Source: a virus (lineage: Duplodnaviria; Heunggongvirae; Uroviricota; Caudoviricetes). Taken from it: DNA of 64,000 nt. The stretch covers positions 44,708-108,707 of IMG/VR virus record IMGVR_UViG_3300010965_000004; one strand, given 5' to 3'. The position numbers and the translations under genes were made by a program. Below are positions 21,237 through 53,023 of the stretch, one piece after another (the first letter of the stretch is position 1; every line of letters begins with the position of its first letter). The notes below the pieces were generated by a model that saw only the letters and a program-made list of their open reading frames with translations, ran no database searches and was not told the DNA's origin.

Positions 21237-21950
21237 ATGATTAAAAGCATCTCTGATCTTTCTTTAGATGAGATTACCTGGTTCACTGCAAAGATTGATG
21301 GGTTTACTTGGGCTAGAAACGGCTCAAAGAGAAGTGGTGATTCCTATAAACAAAAAGGGGAAAAGTCGGATTGGGAACTGGGTACTCGAGCTTTTATATG
21401 TAGATCCAAAGCTAAAGACTTGGATAAGAACATAAAGAACTGGGATGGCTGGTTCAGATCTGATCTTACAGAACCACTAGCAAAGGCTGCCTATTATGAC
21501 GTTCCTAAATATGTTACTTCTTGGGTAGATAGTGGTCCTCTTCTCGAGCAAGCTATGTTACGTGGTATGTTGATAGAGTCTATTGACTGGGACAGATACG
21601 ATAATTTACCTCGTTTCAAGGCATCATACAGTAAATGGGAAAATTGTTATCGTGGTAATACCTTTCTTGAAGCAGGGCTTCGTTGTTATATTGCATCCGT
21701 CTATGGGGAGGAACTCAGTGTTGACCAGTTTTATGATGCTCCACAAGTTCCGGTGTTTATAAAGATCGTCAAGACTTGCACGGGGAATAAGTTTCCATAC
21801 GGAAACCTCGGAAAAGAGAATGATGAGTTTGTAACTCAATTCCTTGGCTCAATTTTTCCGGCAGTTAGATCAAATATGAATTACTACAAGTTACCTAATG
21901 GTATGCTTGTTCATGTCTATAACTCTTTCGAGGTCAAAGTACCAAAATGA
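21237..21950 (+). CDS. hypothetical protein
   Basis: 237-aa ORF, ATGA-coupled to rnlA. Confidence 0.4.
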   Translation: MIKSISDLSLDEITWFTAKIDGFTWARNGSKRSGDSYKQKGEKSDWELGTRAFICRSKAKDLDKNIKNWDGWFRSDLTEPLAKAAYYDVPKYVTSWVDSGPLLEQAMLRGMLIESIDWDRYDNLPRFKASYSKWENCYRGNTFLEAGLRCYIASVYGEELSVDQFYDAPQVPVFIKIVKTCTGNKFPYGNLGKENDEFVTQFLGSIFPAVRSNMNYYKLPNGMLVHVYNSFEVKVPK

Positions 21951-23101
21951 AAATCAATAGCACACTTAAGCTTTATGAAAACCTGATGGATCTCTGTAAG
22001 ACAAGTGAGACTTTTTACTTTTCTGACCAAGGCCCGTACCGAGTTTTCAATTATCGTCTTGCTTCGTACTCAGACTGGCTTTTGTCTGATGCTTTGGAAG
22101 CTAGAGGGATAATGTATTATCTAGAAGACGGTAAAGAGCCTAAGCTTATTTGTCGCCCTTTCAAGAAGTTTTTCAACAGGGATGAAAATCCTTTGACGAT
22201 GAACTTGGATCTCTCCAGAGTGGTTAAGGCAGCTATCAAAGAGGATGGGTCTTTAATCACTTCTTTTATTGAACCTTATACTGGTAAGCTTAGAGTTAAG
22301 TCAAAGCAAAGCTTAACATCCGAGCAGGCGGTAATGGCTCAGGCTTTCCTGGATAGTCCAGAAAATCTTCGTTTAAAACTTGAGGTAGAAGACCTTACTG
22401 GGCCTGGCTATAAAACTGTAATGATGGAACTGGTTTCCCCGGCCAATCGTATTGTTTTAGAATACCCTAAAACCGAACTTAGGGTAATTGGGATACGAGA
22501 TACGGAAACAGGGGAGTTACTAGAACGAGACCAATTAGATCCGGTAGGTTTTAAAGAAGTTAGAAATCGTTGGGTATTCGAACAACATGGTTTCTTACAA
22601 AATCCTCCCGGAGGAAGTGCAGCTTTTGTTGAATCCGTAGCTGCTCAAGCAGGTATTGAAGGTTATGTCTTTACCCTTGAAGATGGAACAATGTTTAAGG
22701 AAAAGACCAACTGGTACAAGTCCTTGCATCACCTTAAAGACTCAGTAAGCTGCGAACGTTACTTATTCGACGCTATTATTGATGAAACAGTAGATGATGT
22801 TAAAACCATGTTCCGAACCGACGAGTTTACCATGAAGCGTATTACTGATATGGAAAACTTGGTTATTCCTAAGTTCAATTCTTTGATTAAGACTGTGGAG
22901 GATTTTTATGCTGCTCATGTTTTACTCGAAAGAAAAGAATACGCGATACTTGGTCAAAAAGAATTGGGTAACCTTTTCAATTTGGCAATGGGAAAATACA
23001 CGGGTAAAGGACTTAATTATAAGGACTTTGCTAAAAAGTACCGGAAAGAAGTTTTTGGTATCGGAGAGAAAGTTTATAACGAAGAAAATGGAGAAGATTG
23101 A
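21947..23101 (+). CDS. rnlA: RNA ligase 1 (T4 RnlA-like)
   Basis: 384 aa; LMDLCK, ASYSDWLLSDALEARGIMY, KFFNRDENPLTMNLDL, adenylylation motif KEDGSL, NRIVLEY - collinear with T4 Rnl1. Confidence 0.85.
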   Translation: MKINSTLKLYENLMDLCKTSETFYFSDQGPYRVFNYRLASYSDWLLSDALEARGIMYYLEDGKEPKLICRPFKKFFNRDENPLTMNLDLSRVVKAAIKEDGSLITSFIEPYTGKLRVKSKQSLTSEQAVMAQAFLDSPENLRLKLEVEDLTGPGYKTVMMELVSPANRIVLEYPKTELRVIGIRDTETGELLERDQLDPVGFKEVRNRWVFEQHGFLQNPPGGSAAFVESVAAQAGIEGYVFTLEDGTMFKEKTNWYKSLHHLKDSVSCERYLFDAIIDETVDDVKTMFRTDEFTMKRITDMENLVIPKFNSLIKTVEDFYAAHVLLERKEYAILGQKELGNLFNLAMGKYTGKGLNYKDFAKKYRKEVFGIGEKVYNEENGED

Positions 23102-23104
23102 TTA

Positions 23105-23527
23105 ATGAAAAAGCTGATATTGTTACGTGGTCTTCCAGGAAGTGGGAAGACTACGTTTGCGGAGTTCCTGTGTGACTTCCTTTTACCCGACTTACCTGTT
23201 TACTGCTTTGCTGCTGATGATTACTTCACAGATGAGGAAGGTAATTATAACTTTAAGGTTGACAAACTCGGAGCAGCTCATGCTCAATGCTTGAATAATA
23301 CCGTAAATATTATGCAGGATTGGAAATCTGGGGATGAGGCGGTAATCCTGGTTCACAACACCTTCACAACAGAGAAGGAATTGGAGCCCTACATTACTGC
23401 TGCTAATGGTTTCAAATTTGAAATCATTTCCATTGTCTTTGAAAATCGTCATGGTACAAAATCCGTACATAAGGTTCCCGATGAAGTCATGGGGAAAATG
23501 AAAAACCGATTTAAGGTGAGTTTATGA
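23105..23527 (+). CDS. pnk: polynucleotide kinase, 5'-kinase domain (separate ORF)
   Basis: MKKLILLRGLPGSGKTTFAEF P-loop, matches T4 Pnk N-terminus. Confidence 0.75.
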   Translation: MKKLILLRGLPGSGKTTFAEFLCDFLLPDLPVYCFAADDYFTDEEGNYNFKVDKLGAAHAQCLNNTVNIMQDWKSGDEAVILVHNTFTTEKELEPYITAANGFKFEIISIVFENRHGTKSVHKVPDEVMGKMKNRFKVSL

Positions 23528-23994
23528 AAAAGAGCGTAATATTTGATGTGGATGGGACTCTAGCAGATGCCAATCATCGCTTGCATTTCATTAAAGGTGA
23601 TAAAGATTCTGGTAAAAGGAATTGGGGAGCCTTTTTCAGGGAAGCGATAAAGGATAGTCCTTACGAGCATGTCAGATTAATGAATCACTTTTTTGATGAT
23701 GCTGGGTTCTTTATCTACTTGATTACTGGCCGCCCTTCTAATCTCAGAAAAGATACTGAAGATTGGTTAGCAAAACATAACATTCGCTATGATTCTTTAC
23801 TTATGAGACCGGCTACAGATCGTAGACCAGACTATGAATCTAAGAAGGATCTCTTTGTTCAAGAGGGTATCAATAAAGACGAAGTAGTTTGTGTATTTGA
23901 GGATCGTCTTCAAGTTGCCAAGATGTGGAAAGAACTTGGGCTCCAGGTTTGCGTCTGTGGTGAAGATTGGTTAATCGGGGATTGGAGTAAATAA
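23524..23994 (+). CDS. pnk: polynucleotide 3'-phosphatase domain (HAD; separate ORF)
   Basis: VIFDVDGTLA, LITGRPS, FEDRLQVAKMWKELGL match T4 Pnk C-terminal phosphatase; ATGA overlap with kinase ORF. Confidence 0.75.
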   Translation: MKKSVIFDVDGTLADANHRLHFIKGDKDSGKRNWGAFFREAIKDSPYEHVRLMNHFFDDAGFFIYLITGRPSNLRKDTEDWLAKHNIRYDSLLMRPATDRRPDYESKKDLFVQEGINKDEVVCVFEDRLQVAKMWKELGLQVCVCGEDWLIGDWSK

Positions 23995-28744: not shown

Positions 28745-29866
28745 ATGGAACGAAAACTCGTTACAGTAAGAACTGTTTCAGAGCTTGTGCCTATTGAGGG
28801 AGCCGATTTTATTGAAATCGCTAAAATCGATGGGTGGCAATGCGTAGTAAAGAAAGGTGAATTTGCAGTAGGAGAGAAAGGACTTTACTTTGAGATTGAC
28901 TCTTTTCTTCCTGAAGAGGATGAACGATTCAAATTCTTGGAAAAGAACTTTACCAACTATAAAAATAGGCGGGGCGCTCGTATTCGTACTATTAAGTTAA
29001 AGGGGCAACTTTCACAAGGATTGTTGCTTCCCTTAGAGGACTTCCCAGGTTTAATTCAGAAAAATTGGGGAGGAGTATTTGATGATAAGGATTATTCTGA
29101 ACAACTCAAGGTTACTAAGTGGGAACCACCAGAGGCTAATACCGGTGGTAACAACAAATTAACTTGGCTGGGAAGAAAAACCAAGAAGCTTAAATACACC
29201 TGGCTTAAGCCTTTCTTTAACTGGTTAGAGATTAGGTATCCTAACATATTTGCCAGGGGTGGATCCAGGAAGTTCCCTGACTATATACCTAAGACTGACG
29301 AAGAGCGAATTCAGAATCTAATCAATAAGTTAGATCGTACTTTTGATGAATTTTATGAAGCTACTGTTAAGCTAGATGGTTCCTCAATGACTGTTTACCA
29401 TAATCGTGGTAAAACTGGGGTTTGTTCCAGAAACTTTGAATTAGTTAAGGACCCAGAAAACAAGTATTGGGCAACCGCTTTAAAGTATAACATTCCCGAT
29501 GAGATTAAGAAACTGGGTATGAATATTGCAATTCAAGGTGAACTAATGGGCCCTGGTATTCAGGGGAATAAAGAGGGTTTAAAGACGTATGACTTCTTTG
29601 TTTATAAAATCTGGGATATTGACGCTCACGCTTACTTAAGTAATGTAAGACGGGATATAACCTGTGCTAATCTTGGATTAAAACAAGTACCTAGCCTTGG
29701 GTACCATCAGCTGAAAGAATTTCCGGATATTAATGCATTCTTAGCGTTCTCTGAGGGACCCTCACTTTGTTCTGAAATGAGAGAGGGAGTTGTATTCTCT
29801 AAGCTAGATTGCACTCATAGTTTCAAAGTGGTTTCTAATAGTTTTCTACTTAAATATAAGGAATGA
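28745..29866 (+). CDS. ATP-dependent RNA/DNA ligase (Rnl2/Rnl5-like nucleotidyltransferase)
   Basis: 373 aa; motif I ATVKLDGSS, motif IV EGVVFSKLD, IAIQGELMGPG; N-terminal extra domain. Confidence 0.6.
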   Translation: MERKLVTVRTVSELVPIEGADFIEIAKIDGWQCVVKKGEFAVGEKGLYFEIDSFLPEEDERFKFLEKNFTNYKNRRGARIRTIKLKGQLSQGLLLPLEDFPGLIQKNWGGVFDDKDYSEQLKVTKWEPPEANTGGNNKLTWLGRKTKKLKYTWLKPFFNWLEIRYPNIFARGGSRKFPDYIPKTDEERIQNLINKLDRTFDEFYEATVKLDGSSMTVYHNRGKTGVCSRNFELVKDPENKYWATALKYNIPDEIKKLGMNIAIQGELMGPGIQGNKEGLKTYDFFVYKIWDIDAHAYLSNVRRDITCANLGLKQVPSLGYHQLKEFPDINAFLAFSEGPSLCSEMREGVVFSKLDCTHSFKVVSNSFLLKYKE

Positions 29867-31018: not shown

Positions 31019-31095
31019 ACACGAAGGTATGAATCAGGGGTTATGATCCTGGTTCTTTACCCCAAACGCTTTGTTTGAATATTGGGTTAAAATCC

Positions 31096-31118
31096 TGGTA
31101 TAAGAAGAATGTAGAGAA
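31096..31118 (+). promoter_or_regulatory. conserved phage promoter driving tmRNA
   Basis: TGGTATAAGAAGAATGTAGAGAAAG - best match to consensus. Confidence 0.5.
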
Positions 31119-31185
31119 AGTTAGATGTCTCTATAAAATCCGGACTGCCCTTTGGGTGGTGGAATAATCCGGCACGAAGACCACT

Positions 31186-31270
31186 ATCCTTTGGGTCTTC
31201 AAAAAATGATCGTAAACCTTTCCAAGGAAAGGTCTGTTGGACGCGGGTTCGACTCCCGCCAGCTCCACCA
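31186..31270 (+). ncRNA. ssrA: tmRNA acceptor piece (3' tRNA-like half: T-arm + 3' acceptor strand + CCA)
   Basis: GGACGCGGGTTCGACTCCCGCCAGCTCCACCA near-identical to the E. coli tmRNA 3' end; lies upstream of the GGGGCUG 5' end, so the gene is permuted. Confidence 0.6.
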
Positions 31271-31353
31271 AAAAAACCTAGATTGGCTTAGTTGGCTAAA
31301 GCTAATTTTCTAAACTACGTGTAAGTCGTAGTGCCTGTTAGGGTTTTTCTGAT

Positions 31354-31640
31354 GGGGCTGTACCTGGTTTCGACAGCGGATTGATGTACGAAGAGTAGGC
31401 GATCCGAGGGGCATTCCTCGTAAAAATAGCAAATGCAATAAATGCCGCTAATGATAGCAGCTTCGCCCAGGTCCGCCTCGCGGCCTGATAGGTGAATGGG
31501 GTAGCCACTCTAATATCCAATAGCATAGGTATACTATGCGTTGGTGTGTTAGCCTTATTAACCAAAGGTGGCAACAATTCTACTCTGTATCTGCCGAGGG
31601 GAACCGTTCAACGAACAATAAATCTTCGTTGTTACCAAGT
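31354..31640 (+). ncRNA. ssrA: tmRNA coding piece (5' acceptor strand GGGGCUG, tag reading frame, pseudoknot region); 3' boundary approximate
   Basis: GGGGCTGTACCTGGTTTCGAC...; CTCGTAAAAATAGCAAAT then GCA AAT GCA ATA AAT GCC GCT AAT GAT AGC AGC TTC GCC CAG GTC CGC CTC GCG GCC TGA = ANAINAANDSSFAQVRLAA*; G3:U70 with acceptor piece. Confidence 0.55.
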
Positions 31641-31949
31641 CGGCGGCGTCATAACCAGGAACTAGCAATCCTGTACGCCATAGGTTGTCACGGCAATAGC
31701 TGTTGCAGAGGGAAAAACGTAACCCCTTTTTCATGCCTAAAAAGGTTTTAGATAGGGACTTCACGAAAAGTCGGGGCCAAACCAAAGGACCTACAACTAT
31801 TGAGGGCTGGAACTCCCTTTCTTAGGAAAACGTCGCTTACGTCCAGGTAAGAGGAGGAAATGTTTTTAACCTTCGCTCTTAGCAAATCCTCACCTGATTA
31901 TAGTGTAGTACCTATCTAAAACCTTTTCTCAATGCCCTAGTTGCTAAAC

Positions 31950-31972
31950 TGGTATAAGCAATGTTTATGAGC
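31950..31972 (+). promoter_or_regulatory. conserved phage promoter
   Basis: TGGTATAAGCAATGTTTATGAG; structured leader before GTG 32079. Confidence 0.4.
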
Positions 31973-32078
31973 ACTCAAGCAAAGGTCGACTGCTGCTTGA
32001 GGATCTCGGGATGTTTGCCGACGGGCATGGAGGTTCGATTCCTCTCTAGGGCAGCCTAACAATCACAGGAGAAAAAAT

Positions 32079-35163: not shown

Positions 35164-35338
35164 TCCAACCCCTGACTGTGGCCACGGTCTTGGCAAGGAA
35201 ATCTTGAAAGGATTAAACGTGTACAGACTAGAGTGTTGCACCAGGCTACTAGTTCCAAGAGCCTGCCAAAAAGGAACACCCGGCAGTTGACCAGCGTCAT
35301 GAACTGGGATATACTATTAGGGTTGAAAAAAGAAAGTT

Positions 35339-35373
35339 GCCCGAGTGGGGAAATTGGTAAACCCAGCGGACTT
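35339..35373 (+). tRNA. tRNA-Leu(UAA) 5' exon (acceptor, D-arm, anticodon stem 5' strand through U34)
   Basis: GCCCGAG-T-G-GGG-AAATTGGTAAA-CCC-A-GCGGA-CTT; pairs with 3' exon at 36110-36159. Confidence 0.7.
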
Positions 35374-36109
35374 TACTTCTTTTGTAAATTTTATGTTAAA
35401 ATATGTGTATACCTAAAAGGAACACATATGGAAAGTTTAATTTGCAAAGAATGCGGTGATCAAAGAGAATCTGGTAGACGTTTATGTAAAAAATGTAATT
35501 CACGGAGGATAAATTCCTATCCAAGATACACTTGGACAAAAGAATGTCCTGCTTGCAAAAATGAATTTCAAGCTTGGAGAAAACATCAGTTATTATGTGT
35601 GGGTTGTTATAGATTATCCGACGAACTAAGGTCGAAATCTTTAAGCACAAATAATTATGTCTATCTGAAGCAGCCCGGAAGAACCGAACATAGATTTATT
35701 GCAGAAACTGTACTGGGACGTAGCTTACAAACTAATGAGCTAGTTCATCATATTGATGATAACCCAAAAAACAATGATGTAATAAATTTACTGATTTTGG
35801 ATAGAAGGGCACATGGTCGGTTACATAGGTATCTTGATCAGCAAAGAGTCATATTGGAGAAATCCAATAGTGAGAATTTCGAGAATTGCTGGAAAGCCCT
35901 TATAGCTCCTATGACTACAACATGGTTGGAAACGACGGGTGTGAAAGTTATAAAACTATGGGAGATTGGGTAATCAGCAGCCGAGCCTCTAAAGTGAAAA
36001 CAATGGGGAAGGTTCAGAGACTATGCACGAAATACCTGACCATTTAGTTGAAGGTAATGATATAGTCCAGACTACAACAGAAATGGCTAATGAAAATTAG
36101 AGTAGTAGG
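35374..36109 (+). mobile_element. group I intron in anticodon loop of tRNA-Leu(UAA) (between U34 and A35)
   Basis: exons assemble into a perfect type II tRNA; intron 3' core GTTCAGAGACTATG (R-like) and AATGATATAGTCC (S/P7), terminal G. Confidence 0.7.
35428..35973 (+). CDS. HNH homing endonuclease (intron-encoded)
   Basis: 181 aa; N-terminal Cys clusters; ELVHHIDDNPKNNDVINLLILDRRAHGRLH HNH motif. Confidence 0.65.
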   Translation: MESLICKECGDQRESGRRLCKKCNSRRINSYPRYTWTKECPACKNEFQAWRKHQLLCVGCYRLSDELRSKSLSTNNYVYLKQPGRTEHRFIAETVLGRSLQTNELVHHIDDNPKNNDVINLLILDRRAHGRLHRYLDQQRVILEKSNSENFENCWKALIAPMTTTWLETTGVKVIKLWEIG

Positions 36110-36159
36110 AAAATCCGCCGCCTTTTGGCTTACCGGTTCGATTCCGGTCTCGGGCACCA
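36110..36159 (+). tRNA. tRNA-Leu(UAA) 3' exon
   Basis: AAAA-TCCGC-var arm-ACCGGTTCGATTCCGGT-CTCGGGC-A-CCA; TCCGC pairs with GCGGA, CTCGGGC with GCCCGAG. Confidence 0.7.
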
Positions 36160-44298: not shown

Positions 44299-44757
44299 AT
44301 GATATATTGCCCAGGATGTAAATTAGAAAAAGAAAGAATAGAATTTCATAATAATAAAAGTCGTCCTAATGGGTTATCTTGTTATTGTAAACTCTGTACC
44401 AGCATAAATAATAGACAGAGAAGAGGTTTACCGGAATCTTCTATTAGACAACGAAGTGCTTTTATTAAATGGAAATATGGTATTTCACAAGAAGAATACT
44501 TAAAATTATTAAAAGCCCAAGATTTCAAATGTGCTATTTGTAAAACTCCACATGAAGAGGTTAGGAGACCAGGTAATCTAAAGCATGATGGGGTTTCATA
44601 TGGTCTTTGTATAGATCATAATCACATAACCAATAAAGTTAGAGGGCTTCTTTGCAATCAATGTAATAGAGCCCTCAGGTTGTTTAAAGATAATTTAGAA
44701 TTTCTTCAAAATGCTATAGAATACCTAAATACTACAGGAGAAAGAGATGCATCATAA
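44299..44757 (+). CDS. HNH endonuclease, T4 endonuclease VII-like
   Basis: 152 aa; CIDHNHITNKVRGLLCNQCNRALRLF matches the endo VII DHDH..GxVRGLLCxxCN motif. Confidence 0.6.
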   Translation: MIYCPGCKLEKERIEFHNNKSRPNGLSCYCKLCTSINNRQRRGLPESSIRQRSAFIKWKYGISQEEYLKLLKAQDFKCAICKTPHEEVRRPGNLKHDGVSYGLCIDHNHITNKVRGLLCNQCNRALRLFKDNLEFLQNAIEYLNTTGERDAS

Positions 44758-47451: not shown

Positions 47452-47475
47452 TGGTATAAGAACAATGTAGAGAAA
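47452..47475 (+). promoter_or_regulatory. conserved phage promoter
   Basis: TGGTATAAGAACAATGTAGAGAAATAC. Confidence 0.5.
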
Positions 47476-47476
47476 T

Positions 47477-47545
47477 ACTTAAATAGCTAATTGGTTAAGC
47501 GCAACTAACGTTGAGTAATAGGTTCGAATCCTATATTAGGTATAG
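47477..47545 (+). other. tRNA-derived fragment (D-arm-like + T-arm, no anticodon arm)
   Basis: TAGCTAATTGGTTAAGC D-arm-like, ATAGGTTCGAATCCTAT T-arm, ATTAGGT 3' strand; middle folds only as CAAC-TAAC-GTTG. Confidence 0.25.
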
Positions 47546-52666: not shown

Positions 52667-52764
52667 CAGATTGGTCCCTGGTTCAATCCCAGGCAAGCCC
52701 GCAAAAAGTCTTGGCAATAGCTAGGGTTTTTCGTGGGCTTGTAGCTCAGTGGTAGAGCAATTTG
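52667..52764 (+). ncRNA. tRNA-like gene 'Y' in permuted order: 3' half (anticodon 3' strand, T-arm, 3' acceptor) upstream of 5' half (acceptor, D-arm, anticodon 5' strand)
   Basis: CAGAT-TGGTC-CCTGGTTCAATCCCAGG-CAAGCCC then 33 nt then GGGCTTG-TA-GCTCAGTGGTAGAGC-A-ATTTG; acceptor 7/7 plus extra AAAAA/TTTTT pairing. Confidence 0.4.
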
Positions 52765-52810
52765 TTCACTTGTCCCCGAAGAGTTGTCTATCTAAAAACG
52801 AGGAATGCGA

Positions 52811-53023
52811 AAACTCATAAACCTGCTGGTTCGAGTCCAGCCTTCCCCACAAAGAGCCCCGCCGCCGCAGTACCCAACATCTTAGCGTTCGACCCCGGTC
52901 TATAAGACACTCCTCCAAGAGGATACCTTCGGGCTACGAGCTAAGTAACTTGAGTTTCGCCTGCGGCTGGGTTCTTTGTGGGGAAGTAGACAAATTGGTA
53001 AAGTCAACTATTATTGAAATAGT
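52811..53023 (+). ncRNA. tRNA-like gene 'X' in permuted order with 14-bp extended acceptor helix and ~120-nt structured intervening loop
   Basis: GCTGG-TTCGAGT-CCAGC-CTTCCCCACAAAGA ...120 nt... TCTTTGTGGGGAAG-TA-GAC-AAATTGGTAAA-GTC-A-ACTAT-TATTGAA-ATAGT; perfect 14-bp pairing; inner GCCGCAG/CTGCGGC helix. Confidence 0.4.

Follow-up and report, generated by a model that had tools for sequence, protein, structure and literature searches.

In Caulobacter crescentus, the precursor transcribed from a permuted gene for transfer-messenger RNA (tmRNA) is reportedly processed into an acceptor RNA and a coding RNA that act jointly in trans-translation, as Keiler, Shapiro and Williams are said to have found in 2000 (cited in PMC9004378). 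Two-piece tmRNAs are a known phenomenon in phages as well, as follows from a published survey, in which 53 genes of this form were counted among the 402 tmRNA-bearing phages of 18,146 genomes, chiefly from aquatic samples (Buchholz et al., PMC9004378). The tmRNA database lists 79 phage sequences (PMC11915505). Among the phage genes, the permuted ssrA of the Methylophilales phage Melnitz and those of pelagimyophages are described as being of the alphaproteobacterial type and coupled to a glutamine riboswitch (PMC9004378). Here we describe a permuted ssrA gene in a 64,000-nucleotide stretch of viral DNA, positions 44,708 to 108,707 of IMG/VR record IMGVR_UViG_3300010965_000004 (hereafter the window, in which all coordinates are given unless another source is named). 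We consider it very probable that this locus is a genuine, and probably functional, beta-type permuted ssrA gene, and that its carrier is a large phage of the virulent type and a distant relative of Salmonella phage Arash.

An earlier note on this DNA had proposed a permuted, two-piece tmRNA with the acceptor piece first, and the searches with permuted models that it called for bore this out. ARAGORN called a permuted tmRNA at 31178-31579 on the + strand and reported the tag AANDSSFAQVRLAA followed by two stops. Independently of that call, the Rfam model tmRNA_permuted (RF04321) matched 31208-31488 over its full length (model positions 1-213 of 213), with 116 bits against a gathering score of 47 and an E value of 6e-22. 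As in the arrangement that RF04321 describes, the acceptor (3') piece precedes the coding (5') piece, and one strand carries both. The tRNA-like 3' end, GGACGCGGGTTCGACTCCCGCCAGCTCCACCA, occupies 31239-31270 on the + strand; its terminus (…CAGCUCCACCA) stops at 31270, and 83 nt then separate the CCA from G1 at 31354, where GGGGCTGTACCTGGTTTCGAC begins. The note had thus given the two inner ends correctly, with a gap of about 85 nt, and had set the start of the acceptor 3' end 3 nt too early, at 31236.

The two pieces can be paired with one another. The strands GGGGCUG and CAGCUCC (both written 5' to 3'; Table 1) form seven of seven pairs, among them the G3:U70 wobble that had been predicted between the pieces, and the acceptor strand continues into an ACCA end. 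The joint fold that the note had suggested recovered both the acceptor stem and helix P2a between the pieces. The other helices of the RF04321 core are also present: P2a has 7 bp, P2c 5 bp, and the T stem 5 bp with the loop UUCGACU.

The note had itself raised the alternative that this is a one-piece tmRNA beginning at 31354, with an unrelated tRNA-like fragment upstream, for example the remnant of an attachment site. Temperate phages commonly carry pieces of tmRNA 3' ends as attachment sites. Of the DNA matches to P2-like phages of Salmonella, Klebsiella and E. coli, several proved to be such fragments, one of them annotated as a repeat_region, which lends this alternative some plausibility. 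A one-piece gene, however, has its tRNA-like 3' end downstream of the tag frame, where it pairs with the 5' end (RF00023), and in the window no acceptor strand complementary to GGGGCUG lies downstream of 31354. The sole mismatch-free CAGCYCCNCCA in the 64 kb is the upstream copy. The only tRNA-like element found downstream in this check, at 31934-32053, pairs with itself through its own acceptor stem (GCCCUAG/CUAGGGC). Neither tool called a standard tmRNA, only beta_tmRNA being kept as the best overlapping match of the tRNA clan, and the P2a and P2c strands of the upstream piece match those of the coding piece. Since the window holds only this one matching acceptor strand, the gene cannot be one-piece, and we regard that alternative as refuted.

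Comparison with other viral genes showed strong covariation in support of the pairing. We aligned the acceptor domain and the first 55 nt of the coding piece of 20 distinct viral permuted tmRNAs and counted the 24 pairs of four helices (acceptor stem, T stem, P2a and P2c). Pairing was found in 94.2% of the cells, against 46-58% when the partner columns were slid, and 16 of the 24 pairs had changes on both sides; the observed values were reached by none of 500 shuffles. The G3:U70 wobble was invariant in all 20 sequences, and in the alignment the window sequence formed every one of the 24 pairs. The pairing that holds the two pieces together is therefore shown by covariation. Although the coding piece is only ~70% identical to its nearest relatives, the T loop UUCGACU, the encoded CCA, the invariant UGGUUUCGAC, U(-5)A(-4) before the resume codon, the LAA end and the double stop are all intact.

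Table 1. Features of the permuted tmRNA gene and its surroundings (window coordinates).
Feature	Position	Strand	Details and basis
Phage promoter, predicted	31073..31119	+	-35-like GTTTGAAT 31073-31080; extended -10-like TGGTATAAG 31096-31104; conserved start region TGTAGAGAAA 31110-31119
TGGTATAAG family, 16 sites, examples	2292, 12674, 30173, 31096, 42450, 47452, 55922, 59322, 60302, 62145	+	motif scan
5' leader, promoter to acceptor domain	31111..31207	+	three hairpins; CCUUUGGG in two loops or stems
Acceptor piece core	31208..31270	+	Rfam alignment, co-fold, covariation in 20 sequences
P2c 3' strand GAUCG	31208-31212	+	
Local hairpin ACCUUUC/GAAAGGU	31216-31233	+	replaces P2b
P2a strand UCUGUUG	31233-31239	+	
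T arm	31243-31259	+	loop UUCGACU
Acceptor 3' strand CAGCUCC	31260-31266	+	
Encoded ACCA	31267-31270	+	
Intervening segment	31271..31353	+	structured; ends in UUUCUGAU directly 5' of G1
Coding piece, 5' part	31354..31443	+	Rfam alignment, co-fold, covariation
Acceptor 5' strand GGGGCUG	31354-31360	+	contains G3 of G3:U70
Invariant UGGUUUCGAC	31366-31375	+	
P2a strand CAGCGGA	31374-31380	+	
P2c strand CGAUC	31400-31404	+	
PK1 hairpin CGAGG/CCUCG	31405-31420	+	followed by an A-rich run ending AUAAAU
Tag frame	31444..31491	+	resume codon GCC 31444; 14 codons, giving AANDSSFAQVRLAA; tandem stops UGA, UAG
Coding piece 3' domain, PK2-like	31492..31579	+	ARAGORN 3' limit 31579; folds; motif comparison with beta consensus and L072
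GGGG	31494-31497	+	
Stem GCCAC x GUGGC	31500-31504 x 31568-31572	+	inserted hairpin
Weak A/U-rich hairpin CAACGAA-loop-UUCGUUG	31609..31631	+	folds

The earlier note had named the acceptor-first order as a hallmark of permuted genes in alpha-proteobacteria, some beta-proteobacteria and one cyanobacterial lineage. An alpha-type assignment was not upheld. The best clade-specific Rfam model was beta_tmRNA (RF01850), at 77.2 bits; the alpha and cyano models scored lower and were suppressed by the clan rule. All four of the beta signature motifs are present in the window gene: UUUnnGAU in the leader that precedes G1, UGGUUUCGACAG, UAAAUGCN at the resume codon and, in the 3' domain, the loop GCCUUnUUACCAAAG. 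The loop concerned reads GCCUUAUUAACCAAAGG, in agreement with GCCUUGUUACCAAAG of the beta type. As a rule, RF04321 scores below the clade models (PMC11915505). The reverse order of scores in the window gene therefore indicates that its parts outside the tRNA-like domain are highly divergent.

The tag frame has the expected form, with an alanine resume codon after PK1 (GCC 31444) and a hydrophobic end, LAA, before the stop. The note had given the frame as 31429-31488. Its openness and its TGA end (31486-31488, with TAG immediately next) were confirmed, and the frame from 31429 reads ANAINAANDSSFAQVRLAA up to that stop; the start at 31429 did not stand, as ANAIN belongs to the upstream leader/PK1 region by Rfam, by ARAGORN and by comparison with relatives. 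In the Rfam alignment UAAAUGCC falls on the consensus resume context, and the conserved UAAAU directly precedes GCC 31444. From this context the tag most likely resumes at GCC 31444, just past AUAAAU, and because the Rfam alignment, ARAGORN and the closest relatives agree on that codon, we take AANDSSFAQVRLAA to be the tag. By analogy, GCU 31447 may serve as an alternative resume codon; triplets at -1 such as GUC precede the resume codon in the tmRNAs of E. coli and of the Stenotrophomonas phage Marzo. Homologous tags are VAANDDSYTVRIAA in Marzo and ANDAFFGEVRLAA in the IMG/VR contig L072 (IMGVR_UViG_3300047548_000225), and AANDSSFAQVRLAA is four residues longer than the common beta-type tag ANDExFALAA. 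The PK1 loop GGCAUU is complementary, as read from the sequence, to AAUGCA (31432-31437) and to AAUGCC (31441-31446), which is consistent with a PK1 pseudoknot.

The 83-nt segment between the pieces is more stable than chance would suggest (fold -23.6 kcal/mol, z = -3.3; none of 200 shuffles was as stable). An alignment indicated that the UUUCUGAU-type leader just before G1 is conserved in the beta-type phage copies. By analogy with known two-piece tmRNA biology, this spacer would be removed during processing.

Upstream of the gene, the recurrent phage promoter that the earlier note had described is a real motif. The core TGGTATAAG occurs 16 times on the + strand of the window and not once on the - strand, and the longer TGGTATAAG-N5-TGTAGAGAAA (31096-31119) has six matches at up to three mismatches, every one on the + strand, where 0.02 are expected. 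Exact matches to the promoter string of the note are those at 31096-31119 and 47452-47475, the latter just 5' of a tRNA-like element. The consensus is tTTAnAT-N12-TGGTATAAG-nAaa-TGtAg, in which the -35-like TTTAnAT stands ~12 nt upstream and the purine-rich TGTAG ~5 nt downstream of the core, and the majority of copies lie 25-110 nt 5' of + strand open reading frames (ORFs) or RNA genes. Transcription of the tmRNA would start at about 31110-31112, judging from the motif. TGGTATAAG reads as an extended -10 element (TG-n-TATAAG) whose final base is G. The final T of a -10 hexamer is usually invariant. Because G replaces that T, and by likeness to the RNA polymerase (RNAP) and sigma factor of the Arash virion, these promoters may be read by a phage sigma factor or a phage RNAP. 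The - strand block at 1-12.6 kb, which encodes RNAP subunits and the portal, contains no copy of the TGGTATAAG promoter, and therefore presumably uses another promoter class.

Between this promoter and the acceptor domain lies a leader of ~97 nt that folds at -28.9 kcal/mol (z = -2.4). It has no counterpart in the relatives: P2c is directly preceded by the promoter in L072 and by a tRNA-Leu in Marzo. No riboswitch or other known RNA was matched by Rfam in the leader or the trailer at E values up to 1. At the other end of the gene, a terminator scan found no convincing intrinsic terminator 3' of the tmRNA and did not call the hairpin at 31609-31631, which from its predicted fold is a possible 3' end or processing site.

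When compared with L072, Marzo and Xanthomonas phage X1, the window gene was 76-83% identical in the acceptor domain, ~70% between G1 and the stop codon, and ~40% over the 3' domain. Because of these identities we regard it, on sequence grounds, as a new and divergent representative of a family that phages are already known to carry, not as the unusual phage copy that the earlier note had taken it for: besides the documented phage genes (PMC9004378), the beta-type gene, with similar tags, was found in isolated Stenotrophomonas and Xanthomonas phages and on several phage contigs of IMG/VR.

L072 has the closest tag, and it shares with the window gene the AUAAAU context before a GCN codon and the architecture of the PK1 hairpin. 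Its resume context is CUAUAAAU followed by GCA AAU GAC, and at 99.5 bits on beta_tmRNA it lies above the gathering score. The contig is phage-like, encoding PhoH, an endolysin, MazG and a homing endonuclease, and has no detectable proteins in common with the window. The L072 gene differs in having one alanine codon fewer, an extended -10 promoter (TGTATAAT) right before P2c with no 97-nt leader, and a 92-nt spacer unrelated in sequence to that of the window.

The tmRNA of Marzo, a Menderavirus myophage of Stenotrophomonas maltophilia (MZ326868, annotated as CPT_Marzo_112), is likewise permuted and beta-type (RF04321 119 bits, RF01850 94.6 bits). It resembles the window gene in its acceptor-first order, its related tag and its position in the tRNA cluster of a large lytic phage, and it is 83% identical to it in the acceptor domain. 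Unlike the window gene, it has neither a promoter nor a leader of its own, being wedged exactly between tRNA-Leu and tRNA-Thr, and its spacer is 57 nt long as against 83 nt. Marzo belongs to the T4-like phages, has a GC content of 54% and bears no relation to the window phage. The ssrA genes of the Stenotrophomonas and Xanthomonas hosts are presumably one-piece. The Marzo authors, however, liken their tmRNA to a 'Betaproteobacter-class' SsrA of S. maltophilia in RNAcentral (PMC8928761), and we draw no conclusion as to whether the form of the gene tracks the host.

Only some Menderavirus records annotate the gene. Marzo was the one Menderavirus genome scanned; Moby, Mendera, IME-SM1, YB07, BUCT608, Ps15, Bhz51 and Yut2/3 were matched over a short T-arm stretch. 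In Moby, Mendera, IME-SM1, YB07 and BUCT608 no annotated feature lies under this match. Because in Marzo, a close relative of these phages, the matching stretch is part of the annotated tmRNA, these five genomes probably carry an unannotated copy. Phage X1 (L076, OQ427096) contains an unannotated beta-type permuted tmRNA at ~120.98-121.43 kb, which was called by ARAGORN and scored 76.6 bits on RF04321.

Among bacterial genes, the beta-type L037 (RF01850; metagenome-assembled genome [MAG] JAJXVG010000008) shares with the window gene the order of the pieces, UGGUUUCGACAG, UAAAUGCC, the GCCUUnUUACCAAAG loop and the UUUnnGAU leader before G1. It scores 323 bits on RF01850, as against 77.2 for the window gene, and differs further in that its spacer measures ~35 nt, its promoter lies right at P2c, its P2b is well formed, its tag has 10 residues (ANDEHFAIAA) and its terminator is strong. 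Melnitz provides a parallel in its phage-encoded permuted ssrA downstream of a promoter (an early promoter in Melnitz), but the window gene is beta-type and Rfam detected no riboswitch in it. The Caulobacter gene is alpha-type and chromosomal, and its homology to the window gene is limited to the tRNA-like core.

A strict pattern for the permuted arrangement recovered 57 stretches in IMG/VR, most of them confirmed as permuted by ARAGORN; two had no ARAGORN call and one was a standard tmRNA following a tRNA. Permuted tmRNAs lay within tRNA arrays in L003, L005, L021, L055, L070 and L073. With the AAND tag start and the resume context as requirements, a GTDB scan gave no match; relaxing the pattern yielded a single canonical beta-type MAG, not especially close, and no host was inferred from the tmRNA. 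The metagenome scan with the 23-nt 5' core returned one unrelated contig only.

The window is phage DNA, and its encoded proteins include a portal, large RNAP beta- and beta'-like subunits, a ribonucleotide reductase (RNR) and an SNF2 helicase. Among 50,697 deposited phage records there was no close DNA relative, only matches to tRNAs and to the T arm. An exact-protein look-up led to a single Logan contig, of 13.4 kb and from run ERR2583787, which is broken off at the tmRNA. The nearest isolates by protein are Salmonella phage Arash (RNAP beta 54%, portal 47%) and the Vibrio phages D69, D148 and D181; in two IMG/VR contigs the portal is 59% identical, and there the tmRNA region would lie beyond their 10-kb flank. 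Arash is an orphan myovirus with 21 tRNAs whose virion packages RNAP beta, beta' and a sigma factor (PMC10585845), and it has an RNA ligase and a tRNA array in the same order as the window. The eight loci examined through the RNA-ligase neighbour contained no tmRNA, and the 15 examined through the RNR neighbour contained neither tRNA nor tmRNA; a 404-aa neighbour protein yielded no relatives.

Several observations weigh against a genuine and functional beta-type gene. The gathering score of RF01850 is 84 and was not reached (77.2 bits). Helix P2b is not formed, two of its pairs being non-canonical by Rfam; in both the Rfam alignment and the co-fold its site is occupied by the perfect local hairpin ACCUUUC/GAAAGGU. 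A comparable hairpin of other sequence is found in locus L008. No tmRNA was found at 30-130 kb of Arash or at 45-95 kb of Vibrio phage D69, and no close relative of this exact gene among the deposited phages or in the IMG/VR, GTDB and metagenome scans. A tblastn search of the 64-kb window with an approximate E. coli SmpB query found no smpB, a weak negative. The mature ends are uncertain because the ~97-nt leader and the long spacer are without counterpart in the relatives.

Some of these observations would also be expected if the gene were a non-functional passenger, that is, a recently captured or decaying copy of ssrA with no role in the phage. The absence of the gene from the scanned syntenic regions of the nearest isolates and from the 15 RNR-sharing loci fits that explanation, as does the score below the beta_tmRNA threshold. 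However, the acceptor piece is at most 83% and the coding piece ~70% identical to any bacterial or phage copy found, and the gene is too divergent from all of these to be a recent capture. Even so, the core-helix pairs and the known functional elements are all intact, with compensatory differences from the relatives, and the gene has a dedicated, near-consensus copy of the phage promoter. We therefore consider a passenger very unlikely and retain the reading of a probably functional gene.

If the gene is functional, the TGGTATAAG-class promoter would give rise to a single precursor consisting of the leader, the acceptor piece, the 83-nt spacer and the coding piece. As in the Caulobacter-like two-piece tmRNAs, host tRNA-processing enzymes would mature it, with RNase P cutting 5' of G31354 and 3' trimming proceeding to the encoded CCA at 31270. 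The resulting two RNAs would be held together by the 7-bp acceptor stem, P2a and P2c. Host AlaRS would charge the molecule by way of G3:U70, and SmpB and EF-Tu would bring the charged RNA to ribosomes that have stalled on broken mRNAs. The SmpB would have to come from the host, as no smpB was seen in the window. Translation would then resume at GCC 31444 and append AANDSSFAQVRLAA, whose ...LAA end would direct the product to ClpXP-type proteolysis.

The tmRNA opens an island devoted to translation and RNA repair, with at least 22 tRNAs, a Rnl1-like and a second RNA ligase, and a polynucleotide kinase/phosphatase. Given this position, we hypothesize that it most likely serves to maintain a working pool of ribosomes during infection, when the mRNAs and tRNAs of host and phage are cut. 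The ideas of the earlier note, that the copy may reflect host range or counter ribosome-stalling defences, are speculative. Just upstream of the tmRNA/tRNA island, on the + strand at 21947-23994 and 28745-29866, lies an RNA repair set of the T4 type; it comprises a T4 Rnl1-like ligase, a split Pnkp (a separate AAA_33 kinase and a HAD phosphatase) and a second RNA ligase of the PHA02142/RNA_ligase type. This repair set is consistent with countering anticodon-nuclease defences.

It is also conceivable that the RNA is made but has a main task other than generic ribosome rescue, acting as a dominant negative or in re-tagging. There are precedents for such functions: a tmRNA-like RNA of mycobacteriophage DS6A that lacks a coding sequence inhibits the endogenous tmRNA in E. 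coli (cited in PMC11915505), and selective tagging for the recycling of amino acids has been proposed for Melnitz (PMC9004378). The four extra residues of the window tag point in the same direction. In contrast, the tag frame is intact and, as in rescue-competent tmRNAs, has an alanine resume codon, an AAND start and an LAA end, and the sequence bears no sign that the mRNA function has been lost. We judge a non-rescue role to be improbable, and a contribution to ribosome rescue remains the favored interpretation.

The tRNA part of the island has several features of its own. ARAGORN identified 22 tRNA genes at 34.5-54 kb, all on the + strand. A tRNA-Leu(UAA) at 35339-36159 (+) is split by a 736-nt group I intron (35374-36109) located at the classic anticodon position between U34 and A35, preceded by U and ending in G. 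This site is also that of the intron in cyanobacterial and plastid tRNA-Leu. The intron carries an HNH homing-endonuclease ORF (long ORF 35233-35973, with a likely ATG near 35429), and joining 35339-35373 to 36110-36159 in silico gave a perfect 85-nt tRNA-Leu(taa) by ARAGORN. The standard ARAGORN run had missed the split gene, and the phage therefore has at least 23 tRNAs. A further group I intron match was seen in Arash at ~88.26-88.53 kb (L030 8257-8528, - strand; Rfam, 58.9 bits), between two ORFs that bear the annotations 'DNA polymerase theta' and 'DNA polymerase nu', which suggests that the DNA polymerase gene of Arash is split by an intron and annotated as two genes.

Three elements of the window are tRNA-like but irregular. 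The 120-nt element at 31934-32053 (+), ~350 nt 3' of the tmRNA, is good in its acceptor, D and T arms and has a hairpin in the variable arm; its anticodon loop is replaced by an extended hairpin of ~44 nt (Rfam tRNA 32 bits, fold z -2.3), and ARAGORN in intron mode called it as a tRNA with a 39-nt intervening sequence. It may contain a mini-intron, or may be a degenerate tRNA or another tRNA-like RNA, and may be co-transcribed with the tmRNA. A 115-nt element at 52735-52849 (+), recognized as a tRNA by Rfam only (36 bits), is normal in its 5' half and its T arm; ~45 nt are inserted, and the acceptor stem is imperfect. A 66-nt element at 47477-47542 (+), also found by Rfam only (37.6 bits), directly follows the promoter copy at 47452-47475. 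These last two may be degenerate or unusual tRNAs.

We put forward only tentatively, as a doubtful extension of these findings, that beta-type permuted tmRNAs form a phage-borne lineage that spreads horizontally, largely independent of the form of the host ssrA, and that the 97-nt leader of the window gene is regulatory. The carriers of such a lineage would be the T4-like Menderavirus, the Xanthomonas jumbo phages, the tRNA-array phages of IMG/VR and the Arash-like phage of the window. The two-piece form may be favored because it is matured by the tRNA-processing machinery of the surrounding tRNA arrays. If this were so, the window gene would additionally have acquired a promoter of its own and a structured leader in which CCUUUGGG is duplicated; this leader could regulate it, by analogy with the riboswitch-coupled tmRNA of Melnitz.

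The window gene is a divergent, well-delimited addition to the small set of phage two-piece tmRNAs, and it extends that set to a phage lineage whose isolate, Arash, packages RNAP in its virion and has no tmRNA in the regions scanned. The form of the gene alone does not reveal the host. Many deposited phage genomes, including X1 and probably several of Menderavirus, leave the gene unannotated, so routine scans with permuted models would improve annotation. The finding shows that large phages build translation-maintenance islands, consisting of tRNAs, tRNA repair and a ribosome-rescue RNA, from separately acquired parts.

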